Shown: in pieces, positions 4,727 through 63,945 of the stretch | How the letters are laid out: every line of letters begins with the position of its first letter | How positions within the stretch are numbered: position 1 is the first letter of the stretch | Assembly (NCBI GenBank): GCA_019695265.1 | Contig: JAIBAJ010000002.1 | Location: 11,822-75,821, forward strand | From: Bacteroidia bacterium | Lineage (GTDB): Bacteria > Bacteroidota > Bacteroidia > JAIBAJ01 | Direction: 5' to 3' | DNA length: 64,000 nt | Position numbers and translations under genes: made by a program | Notes under the pieces: model-generated | The model's input: the letters and a program-made list of their open reading frames with translations, nothing else | Told to the model about the DNA's origin: nothing | Database searches by the model: none

Positions 4727-4844
4727 AGATTTTTAGTGTTTGACAAAAATAATAGCCCAATTCAAAGTGCCAAGTTTCTTTGAAAATAAATTTTATCCGG
4801 AACGCTTGTCAATTCTGTGAAAGGTGATTTTTTGGGGGTACTAG

Positions 4845-4946
4845 TCGGGTAGGGATAGAGGCAAGTAGCCCACAGGAGCATGCAGCGCCGAACCCTTTCG
4901 GTGCTGCATGCGACGAGGACTACAGCCGATAGCCCGACCATTCGCC
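4845..4946 (+). repeat. E-family structured intergenic repeat, short variant (E1)
   Basis: gtcgggtagggatagaggcaagtagcccacagg...gacgaggactacagccgatagcccgac. The terminal stem is gtcggg/cccgac and the apical hairpin is gcatgcagcgcc...ggtgctgcatgc. Its conserved blocks are shared with 8 other copies in the window. Confidence 0.8.
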
Positions 4947-5065
4947 TTTGTCAATCAAGGATAAGCAAGCCATTTTGTAGCGAATGGGACCCGCCAAAAC
5001 AGAAACAATCAAATGAAAATAATTCTGAAACATTGGATTGGTTACTTTTGCATCAATATGAATGA

Positions 5066-6502: not shown

Positions 6503-6687
6503 GTAGTTGCTAAAGATTGGAATTTTCTAAACCCTAAGATATTTGGAAAATTATAGCTGACCGGATTACAAAAAAAGGAGCGAACCAGGAAAAAACAGGA
6601 AAATCTTGTTGGGTTCTACTTCAATTGGAATGGGAAATTGAATTGTACTTTTTCGTCCGTAACAGGAATCAACCTTTTTCTGATCAA

Positions 6688-6856
6688 CCCAAAATTGTCA
6701 TTAGAAATTTTAAACTACGTTTCGAGACAAGTGTTAGTAAGGTTTTCAAGTAATTTTAAATGGTAAGAAAACCTAACTAACACTAGCTCGGGGTTAACCC
6801 GAATCTACCCAAATCCAACCGCACTTGTCATTTGTTCACTTCGTTTCAAATGATAA
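6688..6856 (+). repeat. R2 intergenic repeat, copy A (an inverted homolog lies at 62621-62952)
   Basis: It is co-linear with the reverse complement of 62621-62952 apart from one indel. It contains a hairpin gtgttagtaagg...cctaactaacac and a terminal hairpin ttgtcatttg...caaatga. It sits in the convergent gap between the PHP gene and rnhA. Confidence 0.75.
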
Positions 6857-6878
6857 TTTCGGGATCAATTTGGAATTA

Positions 6879-10511: not shown

Positions 10512-10606
10512 ATACAGGCCTGATTATTTCCTCAAGCTTAAGCTTAAATTATAGAATTGTTTACATCTAAACCGGACCATTTCTTGCCTCTATTGTTTGA
10601 TTTTTT

Positions 10607-10757
10607 GGCGGGCCCCCTTCGCCCAACAAGCATTTTACAACGGACAATTTATTCTGCTTGGGCGTTCGGGTCACGCTTTCGGCGGTAGTCCTCGTCCCCC
10701 GAGGCTAAAGCCGTCGGGGAACTGTGGGCTACACTGCCTCAATCGTTGCCCGAGCGC
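10607..10757 (-). repeat. E-family structured intergenic repeat, long variant (E2)
   Basis: The reverse complement reads ctcgggcaacgattgaggcagtgtagcccacag...gacgaggactaccgccgaaagcgtgacccgaacgcc...gggcgaagggggcccgcc. Confidence 0.8.
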
Positions 10758-10865
10758 TTCGAACCGAGCTTAGCCAATTATTTAACAGTCAGTTTTTCAG
10801 CACAACAAGTACTTTAAAACCCTGCCAACCTAAGAGTAAGAGAGGAAATCAAGATTGAAAATAAT

Positions 10866-14211: not shown

Positions 14212-14253
14212 CTCCAATTGAAATTCTAGCAAACATTAAACCCAAATTCCGAA

Positions 14254-14330
14254 ATAGAATTCTATTACGGCTTCCAACTACTGCAAATACAAGGATTTCA
14301 GAACAATTTTTGACTTAATAATAGTTTACT
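14254..14330 (+). repeat. R3 short intergenic repeat, copy 1 (second copy at 46374-46450)
   Basis: atagaattctattacggcttccaa...caaatacaaggatttcagaacaatttttgacttaataatagttt is about 85% identical to 46374-46450. Confidence 0.7.
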
Positions 14331-14539
14331 ATTTCTTATCCCAAAAATTAACTTGAAACCCCTGTCCTTATTGTATTTGAAAGCCTCATCACGATTTCTA
14401 ATGCAGAATTTGGGTTAAACCAAAATTGGAACTTTGATTTTCAATCAAAACCTGTTGTTTATCATGCCTTTTTTATGACTGCACCCATAATTGGGCTGTT
14501 ATTGCCCACTTACTTTTGGTGCATATCAATTCATAAAAA

Positions 14540-16439: not shown

Positions 16440-16617
16440 CCGACGCAAACGTATTAATTTTTCAAAAATTGCCATACGTATTGGATATTCAGTTTTGAAA
16501 GTAAAAAAGGGCATTTTAAGCCTTAAAAGATATCAGTTGAAGATTTTGATTTCAACTTTTTGAATTTAAAACCTTTGGTAACCGGTTCTAATTGTTCCTT
16601 GCAAGTTCGGTTGGGTT

Positions 16618-16717
16618 TGGGTCGGGTAGGGATAGAGGCAGTTACCCCACAGGACCACGCAGCGATAGCAAGTGGGACGAGGAGTAACGACGATAGCCCG
16701 GACCTGAGCCCGGTTAC
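16618..16717 (+). repeat. E-family structured intergenic repeat, short variant (E3)
   Basis: gtcgggtagggatagaggcagttaccccacagg...acgaggagtaacgacgatagcccggac. The inner stem cagttac/gtaac covaries with caagtag/ctac in the other copies. Confidence 0.8.
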
Positions 16718-16798
16718 CTTTTGGGCAATGTTATCCAAGTTCATGCGAAGGTACCCGCATAATAAGCATTTAAAAAAAAGAAGCCAACTGTTGCAGGT

Positions 16799-17984: not shown

Positions 17985-18968
17985 CTATGCCAAGGTTTTT
18001 TCAGTCACCTTGTCCGGTCTTGGATCATTTTTGAAGGCCGGTTTTGATTTCAGATTGAAAAGTTTAAACATTTCTTTATCCTGGTCGAAATCCGGGTTGG
18101 GGGTGGTAAGCAGTTTCTCGCCGGCAAAAATGGAATTCGCGCCTGCCATAAAGCAAAGCGCTTGTCCTTCGAGCGACATTCTGGTTCTTCCGGCCGATAA
18201 GCGAACGGTAGTTTTTGGCATAGCAATTCGGGTAGTGGCAATCATCCGAACCATGTCCCAAATTGGAACAACCGGTTGGTCTTCCAACGGAGTACCTTCC
18301 ACCGGTACCAAAGCATTGATTGGAACACTTTCCGGCTGAGGATCTAAATTGGCAAGGGTTATCAGCATATCCATGCGGTCTTCAACCGATTCACCCATGC
18401 CAATAATTCCACCCGAACATACGGTAACACCCGCTTTACGCACATTGTTAATAGTGTTTAAACGGTCGTCGTAAGTGCGGGTGGTAATAATGTTTTCGTA
18501 ATTTTCTGAAGAGGTATCGAGGTTGTGGTTATAAGCATATAAACCGGCATCGGCTAGTCGTTGTGCCTGTTCTTCTGAAAGCATGCCAAGGGTACAACAA
18601 ACTTCCATTCCAATGTTGTTTACACCTTTCACCATATCAATCACCTTATCAAAATCGCGGTTATTGCGAACTTCTCTCCATGCTGCACCCAAACAAAGTC
18701 TGGAAGCCCCTCCATCCTTGGCATTTTGGGCAATTTCCATCACTTCATTTACTTCCATAAGCTTATGAACTTTCACCTTGGTATTATACCTGGCAGATTG
18801 TGGACAATAGGCACAATCTTCGCTACAACCACCGGTTTTAACCGATATAAGTGAACTCACCTGAACCTCGTTTGGGGTTTGGTTAGCTCTATGAACCTGC
18901 TGAGCTTGAAACAGCAAGTCGAACAAAGGCTGGTTGTATATGGCTAATAATTCCTCCTTGGTATACAT
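17985..18968 (-). CDS. bioB: Biotin synthase
   Basis: Radical-SAM CxxxCxxC in [16 protein letters not shown], with BioB-type spacing of the downstream Cys residues. Confidence 0.9.
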
Positions 18969-20872: not shown

Positions 20873-21022
20873 GCGGGCCCCTTTTTGCCTTACAGGTTTG
20901 TTGATATGCTCCAAAATGGCTGCCACAGGCAAAAAGGTCACGCTTTCGGCTGTAATCCTCGTCGCACTTGGCTAGCGCCGCGTTCTCCTGTGGGTTACTT
21001 GCCTCAATCGTTGCCCGAGGGT
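20873..21022 (-). repeat. E-family structured intergenic repeat, long variant (E4)
   Basis: The reverse complement reads ctcgggcaacgattgaggcaagtaacccacagg...gacgaggattacagccgaaagcgtgacc...gggcccgc. The stem gtaa/ttac covaries with gtag/ctac in the other copies. Confidence 0.75.
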
Positions 21023-21114
21023 TCATCCCCTGAACAGTAGTTTAGCCCGCATGAAAAGCGATTCTGCTTCTAATAATCAAATGGTTTGTGCATACTTCTA
21101 TCTTTGTGCTATAT

Positions 21115-23137: not shown

Positions 23138-23293
23138 TACCAGTGTTATTTGAGAAATAGTCCAAAACCTATTTCGAAAATTACAGGGGTAAATTCCGAT
23201 GCTAAAGCTGTTTAGGCAAATTAGTGCGAAGCTTCATTGGATTAATACAGTTCGGCTATCGATATTAGTCCAATAAACAGACGAAAGGGTAAT

Positions 23294-23323
23294 AAAAAAG
23301 GCCGAAAATTTCGGCCTTTTTTA
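23294..23323. terminator. Bidirectional rho-independent terminator
   Basis: aaaaaaggccgaaaatttcggcctttttt is a perfect GC stem flanked by A and T runs. It lies between convergent genes. Confidence 0.75.
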
Positions 23324-23397
23324 TTGTTAGGAAAGTTTATCCTTTTTAGTTTTCAAATATCCAGGTGATTTTTAAGAAAATAGCCGGATAATCGGAA

Positions 23398-26992: not shown

Positions 26993-27310
26993 TGGGAATT
27001 TGCGTGAAGCCGGGAAGCTTTTAATATACCAGATATAATGAATCATTTACTACAACTAATCGCTTGACTTTTACCTAATGTTCTTAGCATTATTTTCATT
27101 TGGTTTGATAATTAGATCTTGACTTTAGCCGGAACTGCAGCTTTAGTTTAAAGTTATTACCTGCCGCATTTCATACTTATTTTTAGTTCCTTGGTTTTCC
27201 CGGAGTTTAGAAAACCATGGCAGTTGGGTTGAAGTTTGGCGATGTTTCCCTTTGCAGAAGAGGATAGGTATAGTTACCATTTGGGTATGTTTTTACAAGG
27301 ATAGGTAGCG

Positions 27311-27458
27311 CATCGGGCAACGATAGAGGCAAGTAGCCCACAGGACACCGACGGCGCTAGCCTAGGGGGACGAGGACTACAGCCGATAGCGTGACCCGAA
27401 CGCCCATGCAAGTAGTTAAGGATTTGGTAAACAAATAGTTGGGCGGAGGGGGCCCGCC
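27311..27458 (+). repeat. E-family structured intergenic repeat, long variant (E5)
   Basis: atcgggcaacgatagaggcaagtagcccacaggac...gacgaggactacagccgatagcgtgacccgaacgcc...gggcggagggggcccgcc. Confidence 0.8.
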
Positions 27459-27516
27459 TAAAAGGTATTATTAGTTATAGTCGATTAAGGACGATTAACT
27501 TTTTAAGTAAACTTAA

Positions 27517-43991: not shown

Positions 43992-44206
43992 ATCTAATCA
44001 TTATAACCATTCCAACAATTACATTTTTCTAATTTTGTCGGTCAAAACTGCTTAAATTTTCATTCTTCATTAAACTTTAAAGGTTCATCGTGTCGGGTTT
44101 TAACACTTTACATGCTATTTATTGAGTTCTATCACTGTTCTCCCGTCGTTTTCTTTCTTCTTTTTGACTAGTTTTTTATCTATTTCTAAGTTGGATGCGG
44201 GCCCCC

Positions 44207-44345
44207 TTCCGCCATCCTAAAAATGTGCCAATCCCCGAATAGAGTGCCTGGCGTTCGGGTCACGCTTTCGGCTGTAGTCCTCGTCCCCCTAGGCTAACGC
44301 CGTCGGTGTCCTGTGGGCTACTTGCCTCTATCGTTGCCCGAGGTG
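44207..44345 (-). repeat. E-family structured intergenic repeat, long variant (E6)
   Basis: The reverse complement reads ctcgggcaacgatagaggcaagtagcccacaggacaccgacggcgttagcctagggggacgaggactacagccgaaagcgtgacccgaacgcc...ggcggaagggggcccgc. This is near-identical to E5 across the variable hairpin. Confidence 0.8.
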
Positions 44346-44608
44346 CAAAACCCAATTGCCGTGCATAGACTTGATGTTTTTCAAGTTATTTTTGGTTGTT
44401 TTGTGTCAATTCCTTTATGTACTTAAGTGTTAACTCCATTTAATGTAAATCCGTGGTTGGTTTAATAAATTGGTTCATGCACAAAGACCCGGAGGTTCCG
44501 TGTTTTATGAATATTAACTCCTTCCTTCTGAAATAAAAGGTTATCCTAATTTTCGCCCATTTCCTGTTACATTAAAGGATTCCGTCTATCTCCGGTTTTT
44601 ATTGTCGA

Positions 44609-46147: not shown

Positions 46148-46373
46148 GTTGAATTAGATTGTTGGTGCAAAATTCAACCGGAATTAAAAAAAAATCAATA
46201 CGAAAAAAGTAGTATTTCTTAGTTGAGAACTATAGATGGGTAGCTTATACAGAAAGTGCCAGTTAAGTGTGTCGGAAACAGTGAAGATATTGCCATATTT
46301 CGGAATAACAATTAGCAGCATCAGATTACTGACTTCTTTACAAAACCTCAAGTAATTTAACCTAAAATCTGCA

Positions 46374-46450
46374 ATAGAATTCAATTACGGCTTACAATTG
46401 TTTCAAATACAAGTGTTTCAGAACAATTTTTGACTTCAAAATAGTTTGGT
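46374..46450 (+). repeat. R3 short intergenic repeat, copy 2
   Basis: atagaattcaattacggcttacaa...caaatacaagtgtttcagaacaatttttgacttcaaaatagttt. The E7 repeat starts 25 nt downstream of it. Confidence 0.7.
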
Positions 46451-46475
46451 AAAGAAATTTCAGGCTGAGGTTTCG

Positions 46476-46620
46476 ACTCGGGCAACGATAGAGGCAAGTA
46501 GCTCCAAGCCAACGCAGCGTTTAGCGGAGTTGGCGCGGACTACAGCCGATAGCGTGACCCGAACGCCCATGCAAGTTGGTTTGGGTTTAGCAAATAGATA
46601 GTAGGGCGAAGGGGGCCCGC
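46476..46620 (+). repeat. E-family structured intergenic repeat, long variant (E7)
   Basis: ctcgggcaacgatagaggcaagtagc...gcggactacagccgatagcgtgacccgaacgcccatgcaag...gggcgaagggggcccgc. The apical hairpin gccaac...gttggc differs from the other copies but keeps the pairing. Confidence 0.8.
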
Positions 46621-46767
46621 ATGATAAGTATAATAAAATATAAAGGATTGGTGAAGATAGACTTCTTTAGAATGAATGAGTTAATATTTTATGCTTTTAT
46701 AATTTTAATATTTTTTCTACAGTTTACAGGAATTATTTTTTATAAATAATGTAATTTTAAGTATTTA

Positions 46768-61254: not shown

Positions 61255-62304
61255 ATGCCTAAAATTGAAGGAAAAATCCGCTATGCCGTTGTAGGAACCG
61301 GACATATCGGTAAAAGACATTCCGAAATGATTCGTAGGAATGCCGAAAGTGAATTAATAGCTATTTGCGACGTTAGACCTAAAGAGGTTTTGGGTTTAGA
61401 TGAATACAAAGACGTTCCATTTTTTAACTCCATCGACGATCTGCTTGGAAGTGGACTTGAATTTGATGTCGTTAATATTTGTACCCCCAATGGATTTCAT
61501 GCAGAACATGCCATTAAGGCTCTTGATGCCAACAAACATGTGGTAGTAGAAAAACCAATGGGACTTACCAAAGCAGAGTGTGAGCAAGTGATTTTTAAAT
61601 CATTACAGGTTTCTAAGCAAGTTTTTTGTGTTATGCAAAATCGCTACTCTCCGCCTTCTGAATGGATTAAAAGTGTGGTTGAAAAAAACATTCTTGGAAA
61701 AGTTTTCTTAGTGCAATTGAATTGTTATTGGAACCGCGATGAGCGTTATTATAAAAAGGATACCTGGAAAGGTCGTCAGGATTTAGATGGAGGTACTTTG
61801 TTTACCCAATTTAGCCATTTTATCGATATCATGTATTGGCTTTTTGGTGATATTAAAGATATTCAAGCCAAATTCAACGATTTTACCCATAAAAACAATA
61901 CTGATTTCGAAGATTCCGGACTCGTAAATTTCAACTTTGTTAATGGAGGAATGGGTAGTATTAATTATTCTACCTCTGTTTGGGATACTAATTTGGAAAG
62001 TTCCATTACCATTGTCGGCGAAAAAGGAAGTGTTAAAATTGGTGGACAATATATGAATGAAGTGGAGTATTGCCACATTAAAGACTATACTATGCCCGAA
62101 CTTGCCCCTGTAAATCCGGCTAACGATTACGGTGGATATAAAGGTTCTGCGGCCAATCACCATTACATTATTGAAAACGTGGTGGATGTGTTAAAAGGTC
62201 GTAGTAGTATCACTACCAATGCTTTAGAAGGTTTGAAAGTGGTTGAGATTATTGAACGAATTTATTCCCTTAGACCTAAGAATGTAATTAAAGCCAATCA
62301 TTAA
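61255..62304 (+). CDS. Gfo/Idh/MocA-family oxidoreductase (WbpB-like sugar-nucleotide 3-dehydrogenase)
   Basis: Rossmann motif IRYAVVGTGHIGKRH, plus a C-terminal Gfo/Idh/MocA domain. Confidence 0.7.
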   Translation: MPKIEGKIRYAVVGTGHIGKRHSEMIRRNAESELIAICDVRPKEVLGLDEYKDVPFFNSIDDLLGSGLEFDVVNICTPNGFHAEHAIKALDANKHVVVEKPMGLTKAECEQVIFKSLQVSKQVFCVMQNRYSPPSEWIKSVVEKNILGKVFLVQLNCYWNRDERYYKKDTWKGRQDLDGGTLFTQFSHFIDIMYWLFGDIKDIQAKFNDFTHKNNTDFEDSGLVNFNFVNGGMGSINYSTSVWDTNLESSITIVGEKGSVKIGGQYMNEVEYCHIKDYTMPELAPVNPANDYGGYKGSAANHHYIIENVVDVLKGRSSITTNALEGLKVVEIIERIYSLRPKNVIKANH

Positions 62305-62342
62305 GATTGGTTTTTTTTTGGTTTTTATGTAAGGCCTTATTT

Positions 62343-62490
62343 GGCGGGCCCCCTTCGCCTTCCTTTCATTTGTGTGATGATCAAGTTGCATGCATGAAGG
62401 CTTCGGGTCACGCTATCGTCTGTAGTCCCGGCTCAGCCCACAAGCCTTATTAGCCGGGAGCTACTTGCCTCTATCGTTGCCCGAGGTGCA
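62343..62490 (-). repeat. E-family structured intergenic repeat, long variant (E8)
   Basis: The reverse complement reads ctcgggcaacgatagaggcaagtagctcccggct...agccgggactacagacgatagcgtgacccgaag...ggcgaagggggcccgcc. The apical stem cccggct/agccggg is again different but complementary. Confidence 0.8.
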
Positions 62491-62620
62491 ACCCCAGTCA
62501 TTAACAAAAAACCGGATTTACAACCAACCTCCTCCATTGATGAATGGTGAGTTCGGAAGGAAGGTCAGGTGTAAATTGGATATGCTGATTAGGCTATGCC
62601 AGAATTGTCTTGAACCCAGA

Positions 62621-62952
62621 TTGTCATTTGAAACGAAGTGAACAAATGACAAGCGCGATGGGATATGGGATGATTTGGGTTAATTCCGAGCTAGTGTTAG
62701 TTAGTGCCGAGGAAACAAAATGTTAGTCCTATTTTACAAGAAATATTAACACTTAATAGGACTTACATTTTGTACTCTCGGTATTCTTTCAAACTTAGGA
62801 ATATGCCGAGGATACATTATGTTATCAATTTTACATAAGAAAACTAGTATATAAATTGATATTACATAATGTTCTCTCGGTAAAAATTACTTGAAAGCCT
62901 TACTAACACTTGTCTCGAAACGTAGTTTAAAATTTCTATTGACAATTTTGGG
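62621..62952 (-). repeat. R2 intergenic repeat, copy B (inverted relative to copy A), carrying a 178-bp nested insertion (62705-62882) made of two tandem palindromic units
   Basis: The flanks are co-linear with the reverse complement of 6688-6856. The insert contains two about 80-bp hairpins, each with ccgag[a/g]g...cctcgg termini. Unit 1 stem: ccgaggaaacaaaatgttagtcctatt / aataggacttacattttgtactctcgg. Unit 2 stem: ccgaggatacattatgttatcaat / attgatattacataatgttctctcgg. Confidence 0.75.
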
Positions 62953-62989
62953 ATTAATTTGGGTTAAAGGTAGCATGGTACTTTCCGGG

Positions 62990-63080
62990 GTTCGGTCGGG
63001 TAGGGATAGAAGTGGATAGCCCACAGCCCCAAACCCTTTTGGGGCGAGGACTAGGAACGAATAGCCCGGGCCTGAGCCTG
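62990..63080 (+). repeat. E-family structured intergenic repeat, short variant (E9)
   Basis: gtcgggtagggatagaagtggatagcccacagcc ccaaacccttttgggg cgaggactaggaacgaatagcccgggc. Confidence 0.75.
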
Positions 63081-63150
63081 ATAAAATTTTGTAATGGTGT
63101 TTCTTTCTGGCGAAGGCACCCGCCAAATAAAAAAAGCAGAGGAATTTTAC

Positions 63151-63945
63151 TTATTTCTTCTCTTGACCGTCTTTGAATTTTTGAGTCAGAATAAGTTCAC
63201 CTTTTTCATTATATTCTTTCCAAATGCCGTCCTTTTTACCTTTTACGAAAATGCCTTCCGATTTGAGTTTTCCATCTGGATAGTACTCTTTAAAAGGCCC
63301 ATCAAATTCGTTGTTTAAATATGTTCCTTCGGTGGCCAAAATTTCATTTTTGTGGTAGGTTTTAAAAGGGCCGTTTAAATCTCCAAAGGTGTAGGTATAT
63401 TCGATAGATTTTTTGCCATCTTCGAAATACCAAGTAGCTTTTCCATTGCGTTTACCTTGAACATAAATGGCTTCTTCTTGTTTTTTTCCGTTGGTATACC
63501 AGGTGTTTTTAGTTCCGTTCAACACCCCGTTTTCGTAAACTGCTTCGGAGCTTAGGCGAGACCCAAAGCTATAGGTTTTACAAGTACCATGCAGTTTATC
63601 CGATTTATACCAATCCTCTTTTTTTATTCCCCCGTTTTCCAATTCAATGAAAATACCTTCTTTGGCACCAAGGATATAATTTTCAATTTTGGTAAGGGTG
63701 GTTGCATCTCCGCTGTATTCAACCCAAGTTTGATTTTTTTTATTATTGATGTAGGTTCCGCGATTTTCCTTGTAGGTTCGACTTCCTTTGGTGCCTGAAA
63801 ATTCGATCCAATAGCCTTGTTTAGCGCCATTCGCATCAACTTTGTTGCAAGTATCAGGCACCAAAGGTTTTGAACTCATATTATGAGCTGCTTGAATGTA
63901 AGAAAGGCAAATGAAGGGAATCAGGACAAAGAGATTCATACCCAA
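63151..63945 (-). CDS. MORN-variant repeat protein (YwqK-like)
   Basis: Signal peptide, then repeated G-x-W-x-x-Y-x-x-G-K MORN_2-type units (GYWIEFSGTKG, GTCKTYSFGS, GTKNTWYTNGK, GKATWYFEDGK, GPFKEYYPDGK, GIWKEYNEKGE). Confidence 0.7.
   Translation of the reverse strand: MGMNLFVLIPFICLSYIQAAHNMSSKPLVPDTCNKVDANGAKQGYWIEFSGTKGSRTYKENRGTYINNKKNQTWVEYSGDATTLTKIENYILGAKEGIFIELENGGIKKEDWYKSDKLHGTCKTYSFGSRLSSEAVYENGVLNGTKNTWYTNGKKQEEAIYVQGKRNGKATWYFEDGKKSIEYTYTFGDLNGPFKTYHKNEILATEGTYLNNEFDGPFKEYYPDGKLKSEGIFVKGKKDGIWKEYNEKGELILTQKFKDGQEKK

Follow-up and report, generated by a model that had tools for sequence, protein, structure and literature searches.

Within a 64,000-nt window of DNA from an uncultured Bacteroidia bacterium (GenBank assembly GCA_019695265.1, contig JAIBAJ010000002.1, positions 11,822 to 75,821 of the forward strand), a WbpB-like gene on the plus strand (61255-62304) converges with a MORN gene on the minus strand (63151-63945). 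The gap between them is 846 bp long (62305-63150) and contains three repeats, E8, R2 copy B and E9. R2 copy B is a MITE (a miniature transposable element bounded by inverted repeats) with two small hairpin units, U1 and U2, in its central hairpin. E8 and E9 are copies of a GC-rich structured repeat. The kinds of element present are already known, namely an insertion sequence (IS)-derived MITE, a foldback or repetitive extragenic palindromic (REP)-like repeat and a structured GC-rich repeat, and there is no new system here. What is mildly unusual is that, within a MITE family, a hairpin repeat is found nested at one fixed place in the centre. The original prediction, made from the letters of the window, treated the repeats as three unrelated families. 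This did not hold, because E8 and E9 belong to one family and R2 has its terminal inverted repeats in common with R3, another repeat of the window. The positions predicted for E8, E9, R3 copy 2 and a further E copy, E7, were correct, except that E9 is longer (about 62985-63128) and R3 copy 2 is a truncated half element.

R2 is a recently mobile MITE

R2 copy A lies at 6683..6868 on the plus strand including its target duplications (CCC...GGG at 6688-6863, 176 bp), has an intact central hairpin and carries no units. R2 copy B (62615..62952, minus strand) has the terminal inverted repeats CCCAGATTGTCATTTGAA / CCCAAAATTGTCAATAGAA and a 178-nt insert in its central hairpin. As predicted, the two are inverted copies; a repeat finder and pairwise alignment showed their arms to be 97% and 87% identical. 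Two copies of R3 are also present. R3 copy 1 (14241..14414, plus strand) is a full-length MITE with TTAAA on either side, and its central site is empty but filled in the related loci L001 and L026. R3 copy 2 (46358..46460, plus strand) is the truncated left half of a 176-bp element and abuts E7. Its right half was looked for beyond E7, which would show splitting by E7, but was not found there. A third group, which we named M163, is a 163-bp family of the related chromosome OZ260106.1. The terminal inverted repeats CCCARAWT...KMAWTAGAA are found at both ends of R2 copies A and B, R3 and six M163 copies. These MITEs are 163-178 bp long (about 160-180), non-coding, and present in 4 copies in the window and at least 8 copies in 76 kb of OZ260106.1. 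They make up about 8% of the intergenic DNA of the window.

R2 is a MITE that moved recently. R2 copy A is flanked on each side by the 5-bp target duplication ATCAA. The Logan contig L025, whose neighbouring protein has 98% amino acid identity, holds the exact empty site, CTG-ATCAA-TTTGG with a single ATCAA, where the window has ATCAA, 176 bp and ATCAA. Because the empty site is exact, the movement of R2 must be recent, and the form that moved is the short one. The original prediction overlooked this mobility, which came to light when the orthologous regions were compared as it had proposed; the same comparison showed E8 to be present in L029 and absent from L001. Seven further members of the family each have their own matching five bases (TTTAA, TTGAA, TTAAA or ATTAA), and the target consensus is WTNAA. 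A 3-bp duplication (TNA, IS5/Harbinger-like) was considered and dropped, since the base beside GGG is always the base found five positions before CCC, which makes the duplication 5 bp. M163 copies in tandem have one ATTAA in common. At L011:487-842, two M163 MITEs and a 40-bp mini-derivative stand head to tail with one ATTAA per junction, which indicates repeated insertion into the same duplicated target.

An older MITE, now decayed, probably carries R2 copy B in its end. Next to R2 copy B, at 62953..62968, ATTAA is followed by TTTGGGTTAAA, a lone terminal piece of an M163-type right inverted repeat; the right flank ATTAATTTGGGTT is an M163-type terminal fragment. When the two flanks of R2 copy B are joined, they give TTGATTAATTTGGGTT, an exact match to the right end of M163. 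The spacer between E8 and R2 copy B (62498..62614) may also be a remnant of an older M163-family MITE. Its similarity to M163 is weak (z about 3-4), and a decayed M163 MITE to the left of R2 copy B is put forward only tentatively (z about 3).

As for the parent element, the ends and the duplication length of R2, R3 and M163 resemble those of the IS1380 family, which we regard as a lead only. The M163 end CCCAGATTACGCAT has 11 of 14 positions in common with the left inverted repeat of ISEcp1, CCTAGATTCTACGT, the one IS1380 member compared; ISEcp1 makes 5-bp direct repeats (PMC6061673). CC-initial ends and a 5-bp AT-rich duplication are the points of likeness to IS1380/ISEcp1 (PMC6061673, PMC3184786). 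No parent IS or transposase with these ends was found in the window or in the related loci examined, and scans of viral contigs gave 0 matches both for the MITE ends and for the hairpin unit. The family is like other bacterial IS-derived MITEs (Nezha, Chunjie, ERIC-type) in being short and non-coding, with terminal inverted repeats, target duplications and a pair of empty and filled sites. It differs from them in being a previously undescribed family from uncultured Bacteroidia, with a WTNAA target and tandem arrays that have one duplication in common. It offers a clean example, resolved to the base, of a MITE that is mobile in an uncultured Bacteroidia lineage.

The region 3' of the RNase H gene has served repeatedly as a landing site. 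It holds R2 copy A in the window (6503-6878), is empty in L025 (1584-1778), and contains an R3 MITE, a nested unit and PIN/DUF6364 genes in L026 (12160-12664). Also in L026, short tandem runs such as GGGAATCTGGGGATCTGGGAATCTGAGAATTTGGGA lie beside E copies (16536-16600 and 18040-18111) and resemble reiterated MITE right termini.

Two hairpin units occupy the central hairpin of R2 copy B

In place of 15 nt of copy A (6758-6772), R2 copy B contains 178 nt (62705-62882). This segment folds into a pair of neighbouring hairpins (-39.3 kcal/mol as DNA, z = -8.7). The hairpin unit U1 (62705..62783, 79 nt, plus strand) runs TGCCGAGGAAACAAAATGTTAGTCC...GGACTTACATTTTGTACTCTCGGTA and was delimited by its fold, the family alignment and a covariance-model score of 85.7 bits. 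U2 (62804..62882, 79 nt, plus strand) scored 76.7 bits. Both have the same orientation, and each has the form TGCCGAGG...CTCTCGGTA. U1 and U2 are 73% identical; their ends are common, and where their inner stems differ, a change on one arm is matched by a change on the other. The inner stem of U2 resembles the central hairpin of M163 (z = 4.3). The unit end motif occurs 4 times in the window, in the four arms of U1 and U2 only, against 0.17 expected. Fold and end motif therefore confirm two tandem palindromic units of about 80 bp, as originally described. The spacer between U1 and U2 (62784..62803, 20 nt) has no convincing match to the 15 nt missing from copy B; an identity of about 55-60%, judged by eye, was rejected as evidence that the spacer comes from them.

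The central hairpin of copy A is about 22 bp long and includes the complete palindrome GGTTTTC...GAAAACC. Copy B keeps the left half, GGCTTTC, and its partner GAAAAC was lost within the replaced 15 nt. Since the central palindrome is complete in copy A, copy A is the intact form and copy B the interrupted one. This suggests that the change in R2 was an insertion rather than a deletion, with copy A looking like the older form. It had been claimed that a 178-bp insertion landed exactly in the loop of the R2 hairpin. The 178 nt are indeed absent from copy A and do lie in the central hairpin, but this is not a pure insertion, as 15 nt were replaced, and the location is approximate, as GAAAAC, the inner stem's 3' half, was lost and the hairpin measures about 22 bp, not 12.

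The hairpin unit is a dispersed family

Motif and covariance-model searches found no other intact copy of the unit in the window. In relatives, units are found at L001:1-208, L001:9776-9990, L026:12438-12523, L011:7380-7465 and L020:7248-7333, where L001 is a JGI metagenome contig, L026 comes from the same sample, and L011 and L020 are parts of OZ260106.1. The total is 6 sites over about 250 kb from four lineages; covariance-model matches range from 76 to 107 bits at six sites in three lineages. The hairpin is conserved among the copies with 20 pairs, and its loop is partly conserved. L001 begins within a tandem array with a period of 86, comprising at least 2.4 units that are 92% identical among themselves, and its second site holds degenerate units from the TatD stop codon onward. 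The two sites in OZ260106.1 are solo units.

The units are found in the centres of MITEs at three of the six sites, and each of the other three is either no more than about 120 nt from a MITE or at the end of a gene. Chance is an unlikely cause of this association, given the small share of MITEs in the intergenic DNA of the window. The unit of L026 lies inside an R3-type MITE between AAAAAT and TAACC, with both junctions visible. The array of L001 stops at this R3 position too; as the contig starts inside the array, the right junction alone is visible. The R3 copies of the window and of L011 are uninterrupted at this AAAAAT/TAACC position, which is the 3' foot of the central hairpin and not its loop. 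The R3 host of L001 is 94% identical to the empty copy of L011 and 83% identical to the filled copy of L026.

These results support mobility of the unit at the level of the family. Mobility had originally been concluded from the absence of the units in R2 copy A. This absence is insufficient by itself, with an unclean junction, and it is the dispersed family in relatives that gives the claim its weight. The central hairpins of R2 and M163 weakly resemble the units (z = 3.2-4.3), and the unit model gave weak matches at three M163 centres. An exchange of hairpin modules between the units and the centres of MITEs is therefore possible.

At five sites, TGCCGAGG is preceded by a GTWA motif 0-5 nt upstream. 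The units end in TACCGA...CCTCGGCA, and the GTAG/CGTC tag is absent. Matches of the units to microRNA-type Rfam families reflect only long AT-rich hairpins.

Several known systems resemble the units in part. Correia elements of Neisseria and small foldback MITEs are likewise foldbacks of about 80 bp with two long inverted arms, intergenic and often beside genes, with TA at or near their ends. The units differ from them by variable TA offsets, by same-oriented tandem arrays and by nesting inside another MITE family. REP sequences and REPINs share with the units that they are palindromic extragenic long hairpins clustered downstream of genes without evident target duplication, and REPINs are hairpins of similar size (PMC3116915). 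Unlike these, the units are AT-rich rather than GC-rich, form direct arrays, have arms that are not palindromic in themselves, and have no tag. One repeat family at a fixed position inside another is also seen for IS621, ISPpu9 and the IS110 family in REP sequences (PMC1525189), but in the present case a tiny non-coding hairpin is lodged in a MITE, and no IS110-type gene or bridge-RNA-like partner was seen.

Decayed relics of the unit (TAATACCAG..., ATAGTCCAAAA and TTAGTCCAATAAA) follow the stop codon of a cyclase-like gene at 23138-23330 of the window. They are homologous to the array region at the end of L001. The region has weak matches to small RNA-type Rfam families on both strands. At about 23290-23325 there is a strong two-way terminator hairpin (ggccgaaaatttcggcc) between A and T runs.

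E8 and E9 are copies of one structured repeat

Alignment revealed 9 copies of the E family in the 64 kb of the window. In E8 (62341..62497, plus strand, model score 76 bits), the 5' module GGCGGGCCCCCTTCGCC is at 62343-62359 and is followed, after an AT-rich spacer, by the core at 62397-62489, a long irregular hairpin. E9 (62985..63128, minus strand, 64.3 bits) belongs to a second subfamily and is inverted relative to E8. Its core is at 62991-63080, and its 5' module, GGCGGGTGCCTTCGCC on the minus strand, corresponds to GGCGAAGGCACCCGCC at 63109-63124. E7 (46461..46625, minus strand), with its core at 46473-46568, was found by alignment and covariance model. The remaining copies are at 4830-5000, 10602-10770, 16605-16775, 20880-21025, 27300-27465 and 44173-44350. 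All copies have the 5' GGCGGGCCCCCTTCGCC module and, beyond an AT-rich spacer, an irregular hairpin that measures about 100 nt, in which the stem GTAG...CTAC encloses a hypervariable inner hairpin.

In the window and relatives, 254 kb together, the covariance model found 29 copies, always on one strand. The fold has 21 pairs, and 85.8% of the cells are paired compared with 28-48% for slid partners, although the alignment was itself fitted to the model. Eight pairs have compensatory changes on both sides. Two U-G pairs occur on one strand, one in all 27 sequences and the other in 20 of 27, which points to one functional strand. E8 and E9 are members of one family of GC-rich structured repeats with a conserved strand-specific fold.

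E8 is found at the same site in L029 (WbpB 96% identical), where the contig ends inside E8. E7, R3 copy 2 and the E copy at 44173 are all retained in L027, which is 97.6% identical to the window over 20.7 kb. The ends of E were also sought from the E-free orthologous gaps of L001 and L026, but the flanks were too diverged. At the family thresholds, Rfam gave 0 matches in the window. Below threshold, E9 scored 27.6 bits against Flavo-1 (RF01705; threshold 42), and it was the only one of the nine E copies of the window to score. Flavo-1 is, like E, a multi-copy structured hairpin of Bacteroidota with conserved internal loops that lies in either orientation to genes. E differs from it by the extra 5' GC-rich module and the variable inner hairpin, and the Rfam match is on the strand opposite to the one favoured by the U-G pairs. 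In Flavobacterium, Flavo-1 behaves as a dispersed repeat and is located in sense, antisense or untranscribed regions (PMC9723704). The search for E in viral contigs gave a single match that looks like chance.

CCC-type MITE ends lie 25-28 nt from the 3' end of the E core in three places (window 62964-62991, L009:7946-7975 and L020:7565-7596), with TTAAA/TTTAA between. This suggests either that the edge of E is favoured as a MITE target or that a duplication is shared. The E copies of OZ260106.1 at L011:5241-5413, L020:6134-6302 and L009:7773-7946 are about 170 nt long versus about 97 nt. In these long copies, the variable hairpin is a long GC stem around an AT-rich loop of about 60 nt; extra DNA is again found in a hairpin loop.

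The gap as a probable landing zone

The WbpB-like gene has an intrinsic terminator (62294..62319, plus strand), a ccaatc/gattgg hairpin across the stop codon followed by T9, and this hairpin is also kept in L001 and L029. Repeats make up 30% of the intergenic DNA in the window and are found in 10 of the 23 gaps of at least 60 bp. In a simulation, 13 elements were dropped randomly on the gaps with gap length as the weight, and at least three elements fell into one gap with P = 0.46. We therefore rejected the clustering of three elements as meaningful in itself. As chance so often gives such a gap, the co-location of E8, R2 copy B and E9 needs no explanation other than that insertions are tolerated between converging genes.

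In L001 (WbpB 94% identical) the orthologous gap measures 181 bp, and in L002 (89% relative) about 0 bp. In L001 it contains the terminator and an R2-like element only, and E8 is absent. The R2-like inverted repeat at L001:5312-5465 (ACCCAAAATTGTTCGTTTGAA) touches the MORN stop codon and appears to be a diverged, independent MITE in the same gap. Comparison of the whole gap with plasmid and phage collections by blastn gave no match, and an exact-protein look-up of the WbpB-like and MORN proteins of the window returned nothing on record. An exact 21-mer of R2 had 0 matches in collections of genomes and metagenome contigs, both of which lack the genome of the window. The unit pattern likewise had 0 matches in the metagenome contig collection.

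Origin of the cluster

The explanation that we favour, and hold to be probable as a whole, is that the gap is a tolerated landing zone 3' of two converging genes, which collects non-autonomous repeats of three kinds. The recurrent landing site downstream of RNase H supports this. A DDE transposase encoded elsewhere would cut and paste R2 and duplicate 5 bp of the target, and the ends and duplication of R2, R3 and M163 would fit the IS1380 family. The 178-nt segment would be two diverged members of a separate foldback family of about 80 bp, which entered the central hairpin of a copy-A-type R2 with the loss of 15 nt at the junction. The unit family would spread by an enzyme from elsewhere, prefer places in or beside these MITEs and travel along when the host MITE moves, although gene conversion or hitch-hiking might stand in for an insertion of the units' own. 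E8 and E9 would have been added as copies of the dense GC-rich repeat family.

Several observations weigh against this explanation. The R2 copy B junction is not seamless, since 15 nt were replaced, and its flanks, TTGAA (62610-62614) and ATTAA, are not a matching target duplication, unlike those of copy A. With two copies to compare, the only guide to the ancestral state of R2 is palindrome symmetry. No clear target duplication was found around the units. TA occurs at their left end and again 0-3 nt past their right end, but with variable offsets, and it is a weak signal in AT-rich DNA. The guest units of L001 and L026 are 89% identical and their hosts 83%, a difference that is not significant. 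The two filled R3 loci could be due to a composite ancestor with precise loss, to gene conversion or to repeated site-specific insertion. Beyond 62705-62882, the evidence for the unit family comes from related genomes and not from the window's own genome. Finally, Pfam scans, the Pfam marks of orthologous contigs and a scan for motifs in all loci found no transposase of any kind in the window or in related loci; for the window, this agrees with the original prediction, which had seen no RAYT (REP-associated tyrosine transposase) or other transposase gene there.

Two neighbouring readings concern how the unit moves. It is possible, though unlikely, that the unit is, as the original prediction read it, of the REP/REPIN type and was moved by a RAYT or another single-strand or site-specific enzyme into a site or structure at the centre of the MITE without target duplication. 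The long hairpin with a conserved internal mismatch near its foot, the lack of a clear target duplication, the same-oriented arrays downstream of genes and the GTWA motif 0-5 nt upstream at five sites are in line with this, as is an identical R3 position that is filled in two diverged hosts and empty in closer R3 relatives; RAYT subclasses with atypical or long REPs are known in Bacteroidetes (PMC6006769). However, the window and about 250 kb of related loci yielded no RAYT, HUH or IS200/IS605 gene, and the units do not have the GTAG or CGTC tag (PMC3733652). Their arrays are direct, whereas classic REP clusters (bacterial interspersed mosaic elements, BIMEs) alternate. In addition, the distance between GTWA and the unit varies, 15 nt were lost at the R2 junction, the R3 site is at the foot of the central hairpin and not in its loop, and there are only three nested cases. 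Somewhat more doubtful is a reading in which the unit is a foldback without target duplication that homes into a defined site at the centre of IS1380-type MITEs with the help of an enzyme that is HUH, RAYT-like or IS110-like, and then rides them. It is based on the R3 position, because filling of the same position in diverged hosts with closer relatives empty calls for repeated homing or precise excision. If the fixed position does reflect true site-specific homing, the family would be a tractable system for studying how one repeat targets another.

Other readings do without an insertion or without selfish movement. It is improbable that copy A is a deletion derivative, with units either present in the ancestral R2 or forming a built-in central MITE module exchanged by recombination. 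The weak unit likeness of the R2 central hairpin (CGAG...CTCGG) and the M163 centre (z = 3.2-4.3) would be accounted for, the R2 junction is unclean, and a composite of R3 and unit at two loci means that composites propagate. Nevertheless, the central palindrome is intact in copy A and interrupted in copy B, the most recent transposition was made by the copy A form, full-length R3 without units exists in two genomes, and units or arrays are found outside MITEs at L011:7380-7465, L020:7248-7333 and L001:9776-9990. Least probable of all, and very much so, is that the host maintains these elements as functional RNA or as regulatory modules, e.g., 3'-UTR (untranslated region) stabilisers or small RNAs; the cluster would then be a regulatory region rather than debris. 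The strand-specific fold of E with one invariant and one near-invariant U-G pair would suit such a role; eight of the nine E copies of the window are in sense to an adjacent gene, and units begin at stop codons, as after TatD in L001 and in the relics at window 23138. Yet the presence of the elements differs among close relatives, copies lie in 5', 3' and antisense positions, and the orientation bias of E (5 of 6 informative cases) is not significant. Flavo-1 in Flavobacterium is likewise sense, antisense or untranscribed (PMC9723704). No T-run follows the hairpin units, so they are not terminators.

Consequences of the repeats

The finding as it stands is descriptive. It shows that MITEs can be the carriers of small hairpin repeats, which sit inside them at a fixed position; this bears on the spread of REP-like repeats. 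The repeats also break up short-read metagenome assemblies of this lineage: the beginning of L001 lies in a unit array and the end of L029 in E8. For the contig behind L027, extrapolation places the end near window position 62100, just before the cluster.

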